Below are positions 53,001 to 64,000 of a stretch of 64,000 bases of DNA, piece after piece. Positions within the stretch are counted from its first letter, which is position 1. Every line of letters begins with the position of its first letter. A program made the position numbers. The stretch is from a virus (taxonomy: Duplodnaviria; Heunggongvirae; Uroviricota; Caudoviricetes): IMG/VR virus record IMGVR_UViG_2537562172_000006. One strand, 5' to 3'.

Positions 53001-56000
53001 GGCATCCTTGGATCGGTGAACTTATACACGCCTCTACCCAGTCTTTTTATTGTCGCTCCAAAATCCTTTTTAATTAAGCGTCCTGTATAGTTACTCATAC
53101 TTTGGTTGTTATATCTCTCTCCAGTATCTTGATATATCTGGTTTATCCATTCTTTAACGCCAAACTCCTCATTTTTAAACTTTGACGCTGAATATAGAAT
53201 TTTTTTGTACACATCTGTTTTAGATGAACGAACAGCATCCTCATACTCTCTTCTTAGCCTACCTTCAGCATTCTCAACTGATTTTTCAATTGATTTATGG
53301 AAGATTTCAGAATTAATAACTTTGCTAGAATCAACAATGGCAGCCTCAGCAGCCTCCTTGCAAAGGAGGTGAGTAAAATATGGAAAGCCATTGCTTATAT
53401 CAACTATTTGATTTTTAATTTCATCGTCAAACCTTAGTCCTAATCCTTTTTCTCCCAGACTGATTATTTCTAACAGATGCTTTTCATCAACCCCTCCCAG
53501 ACAAACCTCATGCAGGCATCTGTTAACAGATTCATGCCCTGCCGTAAGGCTTTTACCATCCTTAGAAATTCCCACAAGCAATACTTTCAATTTCGAATTA
53601 AAATCGCTCAACTGCTTTATAAACTCTGCAACAGCTTTCTTTATATCGTCTTCTAATACATCAAACTCATCTATAACGAGAACCCCCTGAATTATTCCAA
53701 TAGTCGCTGCTGCCTTTCGAGGAGTTATTTCATCTCGTTCTATAGTTATTTTTTCTTCATAACCCACGTTACCAGTAAAGAAACTAAAAAACTTTGCAGA
53801 TAAGCCTGCCTTTATTACTTTCTCTTCCTTATACTTTTCCGGGTTTTGTGAGATAAATATTGCACATTCAGAGACGATATCTTTAAATTTAGTGTTAGTA
53901 TCACACTTCACATTAAAATACTCACCTAAAAGTACGTTGTATTGCCTGCCACCAATAACTGTAGCATTAGCTAATGAGCTCTTTCCGATTCCTCTATCAC
54001 CATATATCATACAATGCCTACCAGGAACCGTTAAATTATCTAAAATACTTCTCACCTCAGTATCTCTCCCCTTTAAATACTCAGGATTAGATATAGGAGT
54101 TGAAGGAGTATAATATTTATTCACATCATCTTTTTTTGCAAATTCTTGTGCATACTCTGCAAAAATATTCACATACACCTCCTTTTCATTAAAAATGATT
54201 AACCTGCCACTTTCTGTTTTGCAACCGTTACAAACTTCTTACGAGACTAAATATTTACGCATATCAAAGGAATGTTACGCGCGCTCATATCCATCCCACG
54301 CTATCCCATTTTACATGAACATAGGTAAAAACCCGCAACATCAGCATCAACAAAAAGCCTTACCCGTAGGCTTAATGTTTGGCTTGGCTGTAGCCTTACC
54401 GAACGCGCCGCTCACCGTCGTGGCCTGTCCGGTTTCTTCCACTGATACGGCCTCACATCATCATGCTGGTGGCGTTCCTGTTGCAGAACAACGGAAACAG
54501 GCGCTGAACACCTGTTAATTTTGCCTGCTGGTGGTCTGATTCCGGCAATGCTGCGGATCATCTCCAGCATATCGGCTTCGGTGATGGTCATGATTTACAC
54601 CTTAGGAAATCTTAGGGGGCTGGTTGACACTTTCCGGCTTAAGACCTTAATAAATCTTAATATCGCGGGTTGACACACTTGACACTTTTCGGGAAAAACC
54701 TTAACAAAACTTAACCTCCCCTGGCATTTCTAAGCATGGCAACTTGACACTTTTCGCGATTTTTTCGGCTTTTTGACGTGGTAAATCTGGCGCAAAGCCA
54801 GTAACGGCGGGGTTTACAGCGAGGTTGACACTTTTTCGCGTTCAGAGTGTAAAGTGTCAACCCGGCAGACGGCCTGACTTGACACTTTTCGCGAATTTTA
54901 CGGTCATTAATGGGATGATTTTTCCCACTCAGCCAGGGCGTTTAGTCCGGCTTCACTCCAGTTATCCAGCTCATCGGGACAATCACCTGCAACATAGCAG
55001 AGCTCACAACGCAGCATACGAATTGCCAGCCTGGCATTTTCCCGAAAATCATACTGCTCAAAGTAATATTGCCCAGCATAATCCTCAAGGCAGATAGCAC
55101 CATCATCAAGAAATTGCACTTCACAGCATAATTCCCCGGCTGCATCCTGCACACGCTGCTGTATGTCATCGTCCGTTACTGGTGCAGGGATTTTACCGTC
55201 TCTGGCCTTAACTGCTTTCCAGAACTCGCCCCACGTCATTTCCAGCGTTCTTTCTGGCCACATTTCAGAAACGGTGTCTTTCCCCTGTGCTGGTGGGCTG
55301 TTCCGCTGCTCTGTCGCCTCCACATCAATTTTTTTGCCAGACATGATCACTTCGCCTTTCTCGATCCAGTCGTAAACTGTCTGGCGGCTTACGCCTTTGT
55401 GTTTAGCATATTCTGCTTTACTCATTAGCATATTGCCCTCTCATGAAATAACGTTGTGTGCTGTCTGCCCCTGTGACTTCAGCTTGTTTTCAGCATATGC
55501 CTCGAACACCGTCACCCACGCATCACCATCGGCAGTAAGATACGCTCCGATGTGGCGAACGGACTTAACCAGAAATTTTCCGGTGAACGTGGTCGAGTTT
55601 TTGGAGATAACACTGGGCGCTGTAGTATTAGTCATGAGGATCGACGATGCTCCTGAAAACATTCCCTGAGGCAGTTCGATCACATCACTACACCGTATAT
55701 CTCCCCGCAACGGGCATTTAAAACTGACGGTAAAAGGCTTTATCCATGTTGGTTGGCCTATTAATTCATAAGGTTCAATTTTCTTTATTTTCCCCAGTTC
55801 CAGTGATGAATTATCATAAAGACGAATGCGATCTGGTAACATAATAATGCCTACCCCGCTATATCCTTTCTGACGAATAATCGCTTTCGATAAACTTCGC
55901 ACAGCCATAGCCAGCGAACCTATATCAAGGTAAACCAGTGGAATATCTTCAGGTAAAACCAGGTTATCACTGACCGAGGATTCAATAATTTTATCTGGAT

Positions 56001-62000: not shown

Positions 62001-64000
62001 GGTAAAATGCAGATCATCATCGTGATGGCACGTTAACGGCTTAATCAGTCGCGCACGTTCTGCCATTTCCAGCAATGCTTCAACGCTTCCGGCAATTGCA
62101 CCATCCGGCAGGTGGTAATTACGCACTATGCGCCCGTTCTCCACATGGACCAGTAGCTGCCCGGTAAATTTCTCGTCAAACTGAATGCGGTGAAGGTCGG
62201 TAAGTGACAGGTTAATCATGGCGTACCTCCTGGCGAATACGGGCAGCGAATACCATCACGCAGCCATCAGGAGATTGCTGGCGGGCTTCCTGTTCGCTGG
62301 TGGCCTCGATGTGAATCACGCGCGGTTGTGCCGTGCTCAGGGCGATAAAACGCCAGATGTATTTATTCAGGTTGTGCGAGTCCCGCCCTTGCGGGTGTGT
62401 GGTATGATTTATCATAGCTACCTCGATACTTTCGCTATCGTTGGTGGTTAGACGCCCTGGTACTGTTCCCGCAGTCCGGGGCGTTGTTTTTTTTGCAATG
62501 GTAAGTACAATGGTAATTACCGTGTAACTATAGTAATTATGGGTAATTACCATGTCAACACCATTAGAAAAACGATCGCCACCATACCAAATGCGGCTAC
62601 CAGAAGAATTTAGGGCACAACTTGAGGAGGCAGCCAAAGCAGACGGCGACACCTCATTAGCTACCTGGATTAAACGAGTGCTCCGCAAAGAATTACAACA
62701 GCGAGGCATCGTGCCAAAAGGTTGACGATTAAGGGTAAAATCAAGAATGTATATTTTTGGAAAATGGTTACTGATTGCAGCAACATTGACACTTTTATAT
62801 TTTTTTGTAGCAGGGCTACAAAATGGTGAAATTGAGGTCAAGCGCGACCATACCTCTAATGATATAGGTAAAGTTACATTCAGCTTAAAGTAGGAATAGT
62901 TGCAATGTTGTACATAAGTCCAGGTTAAGTTGATCAGCACCGAGCAACCAGAAAAAATCGTATCAGTCACGCCACCAGCAAAATTTTTTGCTTTCCGGAC
63001 AGCGTGGCCAACGACATTTTGCAGCAAAATATTCTGCATTTCTGGTGTGCTGTAGTAACGGTGATCTGCGCCTTCACTCTGTGCGACCACAACGCTATAA
63101 TCTGCCTCGTAGACAGTAAGCAATATGGCGCAGTAGGCTATTCGTTCACAAAGGCGCTCCGGCAACGGGGCGCTTTTTCTTTTTGTAACGGTCAGAGCGT
63201 TACACATGGCTGTTTTCCTCCATGCGACGGGCTAACCAACGCTGCGAAAGACGAATTAATTCAGCTTTCCGCTGGTGGTAGCCCTGGCCTAACTCAATCA
63301 GCGTGATATTGCTCTGCTCAAGGTAAGAAAGGTGCTCAAGCTGCAACGTGCTCATGTGGTCGCGTGGTTCGCCTGTGATGCCGTTCGCCTGCGCCCACTG
63401 TTTTGCAGTCATGCCACCCAGCACGATACGCGCCAGCATATTGGCTTCCGTGGTGTAGTGGTGCTGGAACGTGTTTTTACCCAGTTCAGCCCGGTACGCC
63501 TCCAGCGCGGCACACATTGGCTTAAAGTAGCTGGCAACGGTGATACGGGCTTTCAGTTCCCGGCGTAACGCTGCGGAACGCACTGGCGCTACCTTGTGTA
63601 GCTCCTCCTCGCATTTGATAAAGTACTGGCGAACGGCGCGGCCCTGTTCGGTACGTTCGACCATCGCCAGTTCTTTCGCCATGTTCACTGTGATGATGTA
63701 CTCAAGAGCGGTTTGCTGGCGAGATTTTGCGCTCACCGGATCGGGTCGGCTCAAATATTCAACAACCTCATAATCCACGCCTTCCGTGAACCCGTATTCT
63801 TCAATGCGCCCCTTGATCCACGAACGGAAAACGCGCCCTACACCTAACGCCTTATGTAACGCTCTGGCGCTAACAATAGTGGTTTCACGCCCACCAATAA
63901 CGCCGGAAATAACCGGAATAATTTCAGCGAAATTTTGCAGATTCTGTTTTTCAGGCCGAACGAAGCCCCGCCCCTGTACAGGCGTATATCCAGTATTCAT

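Follow-up and report, generated by a model that had tools for sequence, protein, structure and literature searches.

A Gram-negative PICI-type satellite in Escherichia coli with diverged copies of the head protease and tail-tip hub genes of a neighbouring contractile-tailed prophage

The window, that is, the whole 64,000-nucleotide stretch of DNA analysed here, holds between positions 52274 and 64000 the left ~11.7 kb of a satellite of ~13.7 kb, which is inserted in the E. coli chromosome with smrA and mcaS/abgR as its flanking genes (Table 1). A preliminary description of this DNA had placed the start of the element at 54600 and the nearest prophage ~8 kb away; however, the true left end is attL at 52274, and the gap to the prophage is ~6.1 kb (intR ends at 46128). 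Since the element starts at attL, it includes the STAND NTPase gene, the 59-aa gene and the repeat-box array. The attL 16-mer recurs with one mismatch at the right junction of the ETEC1747 element, and the 26-bp inner repeat, a candidate arm-type integrase site, has an exact copy just upstream of int at the opposite end of that element. The window's own copy stops at the start codon of AntA, and what follows is known from the near-identical elements of ETEC1747 and ETEC1716, which occupy the same smrA/abgR site (96-98% identity among syntenic relatives). In both, AntA is followed on the right by AlpA (PF05930, E=3e-18), a 409-aa tyrosine integrase and attR, beyond which the chromosome resumes with abgR. 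The integrase and att sites for which the preliminary description looked to the right are thus both present in these relatives, and no structural module lies before abgR, which supports a satellite rather than a full prophage. Gene calls and domain and PHROGs searches of the satellite likewise gave no capsid, portal, large terminase, sheath or lysis genes, bearing out the earlier impression as to the first four.

Table 1. Features of the satellite within the window, from left to right.
Feature	Coordinates	Strand	Evidence or remark
attL core (TCACGATATTTATAAT), left element end	52274..52289	.	Identity to the empty K-12 site ends there
26-bp inner repeat, two tandem ATTAACTACACC units	52354..52379	+	Candidate arm-type integrase site
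401-aa STAND/ORC-like P-loop NTPase, cargo gene	52973..54178	-	nSTAND1 E=2e-9; phrog_6841 E=1.5e-102
59-aa gene, last core gene	54412..54591	-	91-100% identity in four E. coli relatives
Array of 6 exact AAGTGTCAA boxes and 2 variants	54620..54890	.	Candidate binding site of the 174-aa protein
174-aa DNA-binding protein	54907..55431	-	N-terminal excisionase/MerR/TerS-type winged helix and alpha/beta C-domain
345-aa copy of helper baseplate hub/cap protein	55441..56478	-	phrog_196 baseplate hub E=8e-37
111-aa copy of helper small protein whose gene lies immediately upstream of the hub gene (annotated as 88 aa in relatives)	56478..56813	-	phrog_8737 E=7e-36
223-aa DUF2213 protein, copy of N-terminal half of helper's 430-aa head protein	56821..57492	-	DUF2213 E=2e-6
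197-aa copy of C-terminal domain of helper's 430-aa protein	57557..58150	-	Encoded upstream of the 223-aa protease gene
Small protein (57-65 aa), first in virion-gene block	58181..58378	-	98% identity in relatives
Strong terminator-like hairpin 3' of PerC	58486..58516	-	12-bp stem, 7 GC pairs, U-tail
PerC-family protein, 95 aa	58556..58843	-	PF06069 E=2e-32
ProQ/FinO-domain protein, 180 aa	58840..59382	-	PF04352 E=6e-24, residues 67-172
Replication origin, two ACTGTCTACC iteron sets around AT-rich core	59389..59727	.	Repeat counts and layout
601-aa replicase, D5_N, DUF5906 SF3 helicase core and Pox_D5 C-terminal domain	59755..61560	-	
DUF4222 protein, 96 aa	61557..61847	-	PF13973 E=1.3e-19
121-aa protein	61854..62219	-	89-100% identity in relatives
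67-aa Icd-like protein	62212..62415	-	Name from RefSeq annotation of relatives
57-aa YlcI/YnfO-family protein, divergent	62552..62725	+	Weak: Arc E=0.006, NF041551 E=5e-4
AntA/AntB antirepressor-family protein, 266 aa	63200..64000	-	PF08346 E=2.5e-23; window ends at start codon

The genes from the Icd-like gene to that of the 174-aa HTH protein all lie co-directionally on the minus strand. This had been read as one long operon, and while co-directionality holds, a single unit does not, because PerC and the 197-aa gene are each followed by a strong terminator-like hairpin (that of the 197-aa gene at 57540-57517), leaving several blocks at best. The SF3 helicase of the preliminary description is a D5-type replicase (Walker A motif GPGGSGKS), 98-99% identical in relatives L001 and L007 and just 54% identical in L003 and L004, and the FinO/ProQ and PerC-like proteins, the winged-HTH protein and the antirepressor that it listed were also found. 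The ProQ/FinO protein is 94-98% identical among the E. coli relatives; FinO-domain proteins are best known in conjugative plasmids. The iteron block, directly downstream of the replicase gene, proved real: CTGTCTAC has eight exact matches in the 64-kb window against 0.67 expected, seven of them within 59391-59715, and ACTGTCTACC occurs in 11 copies at ≤2 mismatches, in both orientations, flanking an AT-rich core, a layout that has been described for PICIs (PMC6092414). PerC variants are known from E. coli PICIs as well (PMC6092414, PMC11773190). AntA shares 36-41% identity with the Ant of the neighbouring prophage. The supposed small regulator gave no regulatory domain match; the Icd-like protein had no Pfam match, and family searches with the 121-aa protein gave none. 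The divergent gene assigned earlier to a ribbon-helix-helix repressor is there, but its matches to Arc and YlcI/YnfO are weak, and the product is possibly a ribbon-helix-helix protein.

Four satellite genes are diverged copies (54-74% amino acid identity) of genes of a Rac-SA53-type myovirus prophage; the morphogenesis-gene homologs reported earlier are therefore real and mirror the neighbouring prophage. In that prophage, one gene (18136-19428), located between the head-morphogenesis and capsid genes, encodes a prohead protease, a linker and a C-domain, whereas in the satellite it is divided over two genes, whose order is swapped. The 197-aa product shows 59% identity to residues 280-423 of the prophage protein (dN/dS 0.22) and matches positions 402-545 of phrog_6216, and the 223-aa product shows 54% identity to residues 1-228. 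The AF2 model of the latter (pLDDT 85.6) had herpesvirus assemblins and T4 gp21 as its best Foldseek matches, weak in absolute terms (E ~0.01, TM 0.3-0.47), and suggests a prohead-protease fold; H73, S125 and S127, with the candidate catalytic His and Ser among them, are invariant. The 345-aa hub is 72% identical both to the product of prophage positions 7620-8627 and to Rac-SA53 rac56 (dN/dS 0.08), its middle third being variable and far more diverged than the ends, and the 111-aa protein is 74% identical to the product of 8627-8893 (dN/dS 0.11). All four copies are intact ORFs with dN/dS of 0.08-0.22, at saturated dS, and they are maintained by purifying selection, which acts along the full extent of each gene. 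The slot that separates the protease gene from the 174-aa gene is variable: hub genes fill it here and in three other genomes, the pair being found in just three of the 34 genomes that bear the satellite, a chaperone and a tape measure (90% and 81% identical to those of the helper) fill it in ETEC1716, and it is empty in ETEC1747 and JNU. Klebsiella elements keep five baseplate-cap genes together.

The 174-aa protein belongs to a family of more than 100 protein clusters across Enterobacterales, in which the recognition helix residues are invariant. Its HTH_17 and phrog_57 TerS matches are confined to the N-terminus, and its AF2 model (mean pLDDT 89) gave Xis/BldC matches for the N-domain only; the alpha/beta C-domain had no known relatives among the sequence and structure matches, from which RppC was also absent. 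A small winged-HTH protein near the distal end recalls Rpp architecturally (PMC6739421), but the likeness of the 174-aa protein to TerS and Rpp is limited to the N-terminal fold class. None of the recognised satellite packaging genes TerS, Rpp and Ppi was found in the element. Next to the gene, six of the seven exact AAGTGTCAA matches in the window (0.66 expected) fall within the box array, and this array also occurs in L001, L003, L004 and L007. Clusters of AAAGTGT[C/A]AA come after homologs of the 174-aa gene in Klebsiella, Serratia, Yersinia and Enterobacter, so the pairing of gene and array is kept from E. coli to other Enterobacterales; in Klebsiella, a 62-aa ORF like the 59-aa gene comes after the array. 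A search of the helper prophage turned up neither a sequence like the box array nor any other non-coding sequence in common, and thus gave no sign of a shared pac/cos site. In Klebsiella, relatives of the 174-aa family also directly adjoin E217-like tail gene clusters and a truncated capsid gene.

Of 5426 complete E. coli genomes, 34 contain the satellite module, which occupies 50 places with up to four copies per genome (95-99% identity), and the insertion sites (smrA/abgR, tRNA-Thr/proA and others) vary with differing integrases. This recurrence suggests that it is a mobile unit rather than a remnant. The structural proteins of the prophage in the window are 95-100% identical to those of Rac-SA53, which also leads the 14 records to which phage homologs of the 223-aa and 345-aa proteins are confined. 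Helper-type head genes occur in 81 of the 5426 genomes and in at least 19 of the 34 satellite-bearing ones, as compared to 0.5 expected by chance (hypergeometric P 3e-27, a statistic that ignores shared ancestry, with clonal relatedness set aside and many strains being pig ETEC from one study). Since ~15 of the 34 genomes, the three other hub-allele genomes included, had no helper-type head module among the matches listed, the association is not obligatory in the resting state. Homology and co-occurrence thus back the relation to a Rac-family prophage put forward earlier, and a Rac-SA53-type prophage is the likely helper.

These results identify the region as a real phage satellite of Gram-negative PICI type. 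It is probably most of an integrated PICI-type satellite of ~13.7 kb served by the adjoining Rac-SA53-type contractile-tailed prophage. The preliminary description had left the class between PICI-like and P4-like; the layout agrees with the former (PMC6092414; EcCIMP1, PMC11773190) and not with the latter. AntA, the Icd-like protein, DUF4222, a D5/SF3 replicase followed by an iteron origin, and PerC form a standard PICI backbone. What is non-standard, and makes the satellite unusual, is that it has its own diverged copies of the neighbour phage's head protease and tail-tip hub. This sub-lineage was not found described in the published literature searched, so the earlier reader's failure to recognise the gene set was fair.

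From sequence, we infer the following course of events. When the helper enters lytic growth, AlpA would turn the satellite on, which would then excise, replicate from its own origin and be packaged in helper-made particles. The free 197-aa C-domain and the separate 223-aa protease may steer or support head assembly to suit the small genome, in the manner of an alternative internal scaffold. In P2, head protease and scaffold are fused in one protein, gpO, and we know of no system that couples a capsid-redirection factor with a separate satellite-encoded protease. The hub pair may be incorporated in the tail tip; if such captured tail genes (the tape measure and chaperone in sister elements) are built in, the DNA-delivery channel of particles carrying the satellite would be of a different allele. 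The 174-aa protein is expected to bind the adjacent AAAGTGT[C/A]AA array, and the complex would most likely mark satellite DNA for the packaging machinery of the helper by an Rpp/TerS-like logic, the main alternative being a regulatory role.

The helper-derived genes could instead be weapons, in which case they would contribute no working parts to satellite particles. As dominant-negative subunits, the diverged hub, the free-standing C-domain and the untargeted protease would poison tail-tip and head assembly of the helper, and the element would serve as interference or defence, to the benefit mainly of host and satellite. PICIs characteristically interfere with the assembly of their helpers (PMC6092414, PMC6739421), a block of tail assembly by PICI-borne genes downstream of pri has been documented (PMC11364771), the strong divergence of the middle third of the hub is as expected of a subunit that docks yet misfunctions, and the rarity of the hub pair shows that it is dispensable for the lineage. 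However, satellite transfer itself needs working tails, and poisoning their sole supply would be costly; besides, purifying selection extends over the full length of each gene, known Tai proteins are not tail-protein homologs, and the retention of whole adjacent sets (partner and hub, chaperone and tape measure, the Klebsiella baseplate-cap genes) is a better fit to assembly-competent modules. We therefore regard this reading as unlikely.

The copies could also be functionless leftovers of a decayed Rac-SA53-like prophage or of chance recombination with the neighbour, as the related prophage 6 kb away, the clear origin of the four genes in that phage lineage and the split, rearranged protease gene might suggest. 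This is very improbable, since the 11-14 kb architecture recurs at several sites with differing integrases, the copies are intact and under purifying selection, and the backbone, AlpA included, is of PICI type and unrelated to the early region of the helper. A tblastn search of satellite against helper recovered just Ant and a weak 55-aa match besides the four virion genes, and nucleotide identity of the copies to the helper is only 65-72%, so there was no recent local duplication. Scarcely credible is a P4-like satellite or a plasmid-like integrative element moving by conjugation, to which the FinO-domain protein, the iteron replicon, the Icd-like gene annotated in relatives and the integrase, AlpA/Vis-type regulator and primase-helicase shared with P4-like elements (scored 'Type C PICI' by SatelliteFinder; PMC10085698) might point, because no protein matched Sid, Psu, Delta or Epsilon (Pfam, PHROGs), the replicase is without the zinc-ribbon/Toprim primase domain of P4 alpha, relaxase, oriT and coupling-protein gene are absent from the element and its relatives, and the phage homologs lie in Rac-SA53-type and not P2-type phages.

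As a PICI-type satellite, the element shares with Gram-negative PICIs an integrase and AlpA at one end (EcCICFT073, PMC6092414; Rpp, PMC6739421), as well as unidirectional genes, a size of 10-20 kb, a PerC variant, the lack of lysis genes, pri-rep followed by an origin with two iteron sets around an AT-rich core, and accessory genes at the far end (PMC6092414). EcCICFT073-type PICIs have lambda or phi80 as helper, whereas the helper here would be a contractile-tailed phage of Rac-SA53 type; the present element has no Rpp, TerS or capsid/decoration homolog, its captured genes being the split prohead protease and tail hub, and it encodes a FinO-domain protein. The backbone order (int, alpA, AntA, DUF4222, Icd-like, primase, small protein, virion-gene block, PerC) is that of EcCIMP1, a PICI of E. 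coli MP1 experimentally mobilised by the P22-like phage Kapi1 (PMC11773190). EcCIMP1 has homologs of Ant (59%), PerC (46%) and, at the equivalent position, the small leader protein (47%), shares the tRNA-Thr/proA site with the JNU relative and likewise encodes homologs of its own helper's virion proteins. Its captured genes are, however, P22-type ejection proteins (PMC11773190) instead of protease and hub, its replicase is of TOPRIM/DUF927 and not D5/SF3 type, and it is without a 174-aa homolog, box array or FinO gene.

The left half of cf-PICIs (int, regulator, primase) is of like kind, and they also encode their own prohead protease (bioRxiv 10.1101/2022.09.08.507074; PMC10085698). They carry, though, a full head set (capsid, portal, connectors, TerS, TerL) and steal only tails, while the present satellite has no capsid, portal or terminase and has a tail gene. 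Helper-embedded PICIs take up late genes from their helpers, some of which they adapt (Mageeney et al. 2023, PMC10111431), but these PICIs lie inside a helper late gene, with lambdoid helpers and mostly capsid genes, whereas our satellite, with protease and hub of Rac-SA53 type, is in a chromosomal intergenic site. The logic proposed here, in which a helper-scaffold-related satellite protein alters head assembly, would be shared with SaPI CpmB and other capsid-redirection factors (PMC6893505); these have no sequence relationship to the satellite proteins, and small capsids are a proposal here. Like P4 with P2, the satellite would depend on a contractile-tailed temperate phage and encodes an antirepressor-type function through which it could awaken the helper, but it lacks Sid, Psu, Delta, Epsilon and the P4-type alpha primase domain, and while P4 resizes the head via an external scaffold, the candidate here copies the C-domain of the helper's internal protease. 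Both elements have a cargo slot, which in P4 is a hotspot of defence genes (PMC9122126). In the satellite, it would be the attL-proximal end with its STAND NTPase, whose sole PADLOC match was weak and which is possibly an anti-phage protein; this hotspot is variable, with SieB and DUF4747 among its genes in other strains.

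The stretch is E. coli chromosome, most of a Rac-family prophage occupying 1-46128. The satellite proposed in the preliminary description lies 6.1 kb outside this prophage, beyond dbpA, zntB, dgcM and smrA (which ends at 52136), and not about 8 kb away as had been estimated. Comparison with the empty site of K-12 and with the locus of strain ETEC1747 yielded a 16-bp att core, TCACGATATT[T/A]ATAAT, and the element begins 2.3 kb further left than had been proposed. It is inserted in the smrA-mcaS intergenic region, ca. 75 bp upstream of the mcaS sRNA gene (2827-2842 of the K-12 empty-site locus L006), and not at a tRNA site, since a tRNA scan found no tRNA genes in the window. 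Just inside each end, the comparison with ETEC1747 revealed a 26-bp repeat consisting of two tandem 13-mers, which is plausibly an arm-type integrase site. The elements of ETEC1747 and ETEC1716 were 96-98% identical to the window satellite and occupied the same site. Past the AntA gene, both continue with an AlpA gene (PF05930, E=3e-18; in ETEC1747 it encodes 62 aa and directly follows the AntA gene), a gene for a 409-aa tyrosine integrase with Arm-DNA-bind_3 and Phage_integrase domains, attR and abgR, which bears out the expectation of an integrase and an att site to the right. The ETEC1747 element measures 11.7 kb. The window satellite should be ca. 13.7 kb long, made up of 11.7 kb in the window and ca. 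2.0 kb added by analogy with ETEC1747, or about one quarter of the ca. 52-kb putative helper; at that size, small capsids or multimers packed in full heads would be expected.

Coordinates and characteristics of features of the satellite and of the adjoining prophage end
Feature	Coordinates	Strand	Remarks
intR	44893-46128		followed by ttcA
attL core	52274-52289		second copy past the integrase in ETEC1747
Box array	54620-54890		directly after the 174-aa gene
Candidate binding boxes of the 174-aa protein			sequence form AAAGTGTCAA
Terminator hairpin	58486-58516		strong; just 3' of the FinO-PerC gene pair
ProQ/FinO protein gene			E=6e-24
PerC gene			E=2e-32
Iteron block	59389-59727		after the replicase gene
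Replicase gene (601 aa)	59755-61560	minus	D5_N/DUF5906/Pox_D5, SF3-type
Single box	62786-62794		early control region
AntA antirepressor gene			E=2.5e-23
attR core	beyond 64000 in this strain, by analogy with ETEC1747		expected TCACGATATTAATAAT

PICIs of Gram-negative bacteria, a phage-inducible class of satellites, are defined by an end with int and alpA, by genes running in one direction, by a replicase with an origin behind it in which two iteron sets flank an AT-rich region, and by PerC variants, and they have neither lysis genes nor a complete structural module (PMC6092414). Judged by its gene content, the satellite is a Gram-negative PICI in kind, and its layout matches that published one. 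An integrase and flanking att repeats are present (the integrase and attR were seen in relatives only), and AlpA lies next to int in ETEC1747, outside the window. The core genes are all on the minus strand, as is every gene from 62415 to 54907, and the only divergent gene of the satellite encodes a 57-aa YlcI/YnfO-like protein. Directly behind the pri-rep gene comes an origin of this two-set type: a gap of 372 bp after the replicase proved to be a genuine iteron block, as had been noticed from the sequence. Of the eight exact CTGTCTAC matches in the 64 kb, seven fall in this block (59391-59715; 0.67 expected in the window), and ACTGTCTACC occurs in 11 copies with no more than two mismatches, in both orientations around an AT-rich core. 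The size falls within 10-20 kb, and no holin, endolysin, capsid, portal, TerL or sheath gene was found in the satellite, so that apart from one tail-hub gene pair it has neither lysis genes nor a full structural module.

The gene families named in the preliminary description (SF3-type replicase, ProQ/FinO, PerC, antirepressor and HTH protein, the last being the 174-aa protein) were all recovered, and a DUF4222 protein also belongs to the array. The small regulator that it listed exists as a gene (67 aa, annotated Icd-like) and gave no domain hit; the RHH assignment was weak, and the single operon that had been described is broken by terminator-like hairpins after the PerC gene and after the 197-aa gene. 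The FinO-domain protein is kept across the E. coli lineage of the satellite, and a literature search gave no mention of FinO-domain proteins in PICIs. An Rfam scan of 52000-64000 at E<=1 gave no sRNA partner for it, only three sub-threshold matches on terminator hairpins. The FinO and PerC genes overlap, and a strong terminator hairpin lies just 3' of the pair. Terminator-type hairpins at 3' ends are the usual targets of FinO/ProQ proteins, so the FinO protein may have the transcript of its own gene pair as a ligand.

EcCIMP1, of E. coli MP1, is a PICI for which mobilisation by phage Kapi1 has been demonstrated (PMC11773190). The two elements have in common a backbone and a virion-gene slot after the replicase; EcCIMP1 shares Ant (59%), PerC (46%) and a small leader protein (47%) with the satellite, but not the replicase, the 174-aa gene, the box array or the FinO gene. 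As the kind of element, a P4-type element, a capsid-forming PICI and a helper-embedded PICI were rejected because each fails in defining features. Sid, Psu, Delta and Epsilon gave no Pfam, PHROG or NCBIfam match, and the replicase has only D5_N, DUF5906 and Pox_D5 in place of an alpha-type zinc-ribbon/Toprim primase domain, unlike the Klebsiella relatives, in which Zn_Ribbon_Prim/Toprim_3 is present. As to a capsid-forming PICI, the satellite encodes a protease-fold protein only, and no capsid, portal, head-tail connectors or large terminase of its own; integration at the smrA-mcaS site, and not in a helper late gene, disposes of a helper-embedded PICI.

In its structural proteins the prophage shares 95-100% identity with phage Rac-SA53 (KU052037); the exception is the tape measure/lytic transglycosylase (9562-11679), which was 45-60% identical to its counterpart. 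PHROG matches and gene order indicate that the prophage, which is the likely helper, is a contractile-tailed phage. Its late region runs from TerS, TerL, portal, a head-morphogenesis protein, a 430-aa DUF2213 protein and capsid-like genes through sheath-position (445 aa), tube-position and chaperone-position genes and a tape measure with a lytic transglycosylase domain to 222-aa, 88-aa and 335-aa (hub) proteins and a gpV-type spike. As had been noted from the sequence, the satellite partly mirrors this prophage: four of its genes match the neighbouring prophage at 54-74% identity. Nucleotide identity of the four copies was 65-72%, and the dN/dS of the four captured genes was 0.08-0.22.

Two of these genes correspond to the helper 430-aa protein, whose gene sits between the head-morphogenesis gene and the capsid-like genes, and which consists of a DUF2213 domain (residues 1-228), an Ala/Glu/Lys-rich linker and a 145-aa C-terminal domain. 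In the satellite, the DUF2213 part (223 aa, 54% identical to the helper) and the C-domain (197 aa, 59%) are encoded by separate genes, and the C-domain gene is transcribed first. The order is thus swapped, which indicates a split with permutation and not a simple frameshift. The AlphaFold model of the 223-aa protein (pLDDT 85.6) had as its best structural matches almost exclusively capsid maturation proteases, herpesvirus assemblins and T4 gp21 (probability 0.85-0.98, E ca. 0.01, TM 0.3-0.47), and H73, S125 and S127 were invariant across 30 homologs, the satellite copy included. A PDB sequence search with this protein gave no match, and no literature on DUF2213 in PICIs was found. The label 'NUDIX hydrolase' carried by the 197-aa protein and the helper protein was rejected as a transferred annotation error, because the 197-aa protein matched no family in Pfam or NCBIfam and did not resemble a fusion protein of NUDIX and DUF2213, and because in that fusion NUDIX stands in front, with DUF2213 beginning at residue 182. 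P2 gpO combines a protease with a capsid-targeting or scaffolding domain in one chain, and by analogy we infer the same build for the helper 430-aa protein. A free, diverged C-domain could then alter or take over shell assembly for a small genome, and the separate 223-aa protease would be needed to mature such shells.

The other two captured genes encode tail proteins of 345 aa and 111 aa, 72% and 74% identical to the helper. The 345-aa protein matches the PHROG 'baseplate hub' (E=8e-37) and had no match in a PDB sequence search. In Rac-SA53, the hub homolog is encoded after the tape measure and ahead of the gpV-type spike. In phage E217, a trimeric cap protein closes the tube and anchors the spike (PMC10329688), and the 345-aa hub is its positional counterpart by synteny, not by sequence. 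While the first 120 and last 105 residues of the satellite hub were 83-97% identical to the helper hub, residues 121-240 were only 53% identical. This middle segment is a variable region of the phage lineage, because it was also unalignable among the helper prophages. The variable parts of the helper phage group, tape measure and hub middle, are the same parts that satellites have taken.

The hub pair is optional in the satellite lineage, and the satellite hub allele occurred in three complete genomes only. At the same position, between the 223-aa protease gene and the 174-aa gene, ETEC1716 carries a helper-type chaperone-position gene (90% identical) and a tape measure (81% identical), and the slot is empty in ETEC1747 and JNU. 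The equivalent slot of EcCIMP1 holds DUF2824, DNA ejection protein and lytic transglycosylase genes (P22-type ejection proteins), and the Klebsiella satellites have Dit-like, Pam3_gp18-like, hub-position and Apex-spike genes adjoining E217-like tail clusters. Homology of the E. coli hub pair to the Klebsiella baseplate genes was rejected, as BLASTP gave no match; the two are parallel, not homologous. What the captured tail genes have in common is that they specify the DNA-conducting centre of the tail or its ejected proteins. Such content is unusual for the satellite class, since SatelliteFinder treats tail genes as forbidden components that satellites 'never or very rarely' have (PMC10085698). 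Beyond a remark on EcCIMP1, we found no literature on satellite-encoded hub, tape measure or ejection proteins.

Directly after the 174-aa gene comes an array with six exact copies of the AAGTGTCAA box and two variant ones; seven exact boxes occur in the window as against 0.66 expected, and the array is kept in four E. coli relatives. Homologs of the 174-aa protein, 36-62% identical, were found in Klebsiella, Serratia, Yersinia and Enterobacter, in every case as the product of the final gene in a PICI-type array. Association gives good support for the pairing of protein and boxes, because 3-6 AAAGTGT[C/A]AA boxes follow each homolog within 600 bp, being nearly absent elsewhere in those 20-kb loci, and the recognition-helix residues of the family are invariant; from this we infer that the protein binds the boxes. 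The model of the 174-aa protein (pLDDT 89) comprises an N-terminal excisionase/MerR-type winged helix and an alpha/beta C-domain. Foldseek searches of PDB and BFVD matched the N-domain only, to Pukovnik Xis and BldC; they gave no relative of the C-domain and no full-length match to Rpp or TerS. A PDB sequence search also gave no match. RppC was found neither by sequence nor by fold, the match to TerS PHROGs was limited to residues 1-42, and no homolog of TerS, Rpp, Ppi or a capsid morphogenesis gene was found in the satellite. With the N-terminal excisionase-type HTH as its only match, the protein was not called Rpp. The published work on RppC assigns its DNA-binding domain and that of lambda TerS to the fold class seen in the N-domain (PMC6739421).

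For the 174-aa protein, we favour a role in packaging recognition, with a regulatory role as the alternative. One more AAGTGTCAA box stands alone in the early control region, with the divergent 57-aa gene on one side and the AntA gene on the other; it is kept in ETEC1747 and ETEC1716 and is a hint that early regulation, too, involves the box-binding protein. A role as an excisionase is unlikely, because the distance between the boxes and attL varies with the size of the cargo between them (ca. 0.65 kb in ETEC1716, ca. 2.3 kb here). Three Klebsiella pneumoniae loci (L008-L010, 1-20516) contain satellites with a 55%-identical 174-aa homolog and a short 292-aa integrase that adjoin E217-like tail gene clusters, and in L009 a truncated Major_capside gene is directly next. 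These satellites could be integrated within a helper prophage, or they could have taken up a large block of late genes.

The link to the helper was also seen across phages and genomes. In a tblastn search of 50,697 phage records, the 223-aa and 345-aa proteins matched the same 14 records, headed by Rac-SA53 and a near-identical record and followed by Yersinia, Pantoea, Klebsiella and Shewanella myoviruses. Satellite DNA matched only two helper-type phages in the phage collection, over 3-6% of the query, and the satellite itself is absent from the collection. The helper-type head region was present in 87 genomes (full length in 81) and in at least 19 of the 34 satellite-bearing genomes, against a chance expectation of 0.5 (hypergeometric P = 3e-27, a statistic that ignores clonal relatedness); about 15 of the 34 had no helper among the matches listed. 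A blastn comparison revealed no pac/cos sequence common to satellite and helper, and no boxes occurred in the prophage. Satellite AntA was 36-41% identical to helper Ant. P4 epsilon wakes P2, and by analogy the satellite AntA could wake the helper.

The satellite is a mobile unit and not a remnant, because its DUF2213/197-aa module recurs at several sites, with different integrases and two replicase alleles. Among 5426 complete E. coli genomes, 34 carry the module, 95-99% identical, at 50 places in total and in up to four copies per genome. It lies at smrA/abgR, tRNA-Thr/proA and another site, and combines with two replicase alleles that are 54% identical to each other. Four separate copies of the protease/C-domain module were present on the ETEC1747 chromosome (NZ_CP122722.1), which implies that several satellites of the lineage reside together there at different sites. 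The exact combination of site, hub genes and cargo seen in the window occurred in no complete genome. The cargo slot, at the attL-proximal end, varies in content: a 401-aa STAND/ORC-like NTPase gene occupies it in the window satellite and in JNU, whereas 08-00022 has SieB there and others have DUF4747; PADLOC gave only weak hits for the cargo NTPase and the virion-gene copies. PICI ends are defence hotspots (PMC11364771), and the cargo slot fits this. Defence-like cargo was also observed in Serratia (L011, 11260-12806) and Yersinia (L012, 11414-13162 and 15049-16595), comprising DprA-like and PRTase-like proteins and an OLD-type TOPRIM/AAA ATPase.

These results support the interpretation given in the preliminary description, and the finding is real. 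The kind of element is known; what appears to be undescribed is its content, namely the split and permuted helper protease, the swappable tail-tip slot, the 174-aa/box array and FinO. Phage satellites move virulence and defence genes and affect which phages succeed, and the known satellite mechanisms target helper head size or DNA packaging. Rather doubtful, in our judgement, is the wider proposal that an enterobacterial PICI lineage, besides hijacking heads, supplies alleles of its own for the DNA-delivery channel of the helper, that the split protease/C-domain pair is a new head-redirection device, and that the 174-aa/box array is a new, widely conserved packaging/control module. If it were true, satellite particles would have a satellite-specified tail tip, the alleles being hub/cap, tape measure with chaperone, the Klebsiella baseplate-cap set and the EcCIMP1 ejection proteins, and entry might be possible into helper lysogens with superinfection exclusion or into cells with tape-measure- or hub-sensing defences. 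Satellites that swap tail-tip parts could form particles that reach cells barred to the helper, which would change predictions of host range and gene flow, and satellites with tail genes may be systematically missed, since detection treats such genes as forbidden. The 174-aa protein and its boxes offer a concrete handle on packaging or control in a large set of 'Type C' PICIs, which have no recognised packaging gene.

Phages of the Rac-SA53 group carry enterotoxin-type genes in livestock E. coli, and a satellite that modulates such phages would have some relevance to pathogen evolution. LT-IIa genes were absent from the window prophage. At 15955-17511, the capsid-like rac45 of Rac-SA53 and the next gene, rac46, are read here as a single 518-aa ORF, which could be a natural fusion, a read-through or a missing stop. 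The pertussis-like toxin pair of Rac-SA53 has homologs in the prophage at 27267-28458 (minus strand), EplA being 66% and EplB 31% identical, and GC content falls to 37-40% around these genes, in an AT-rich stretch at 27000-29000.
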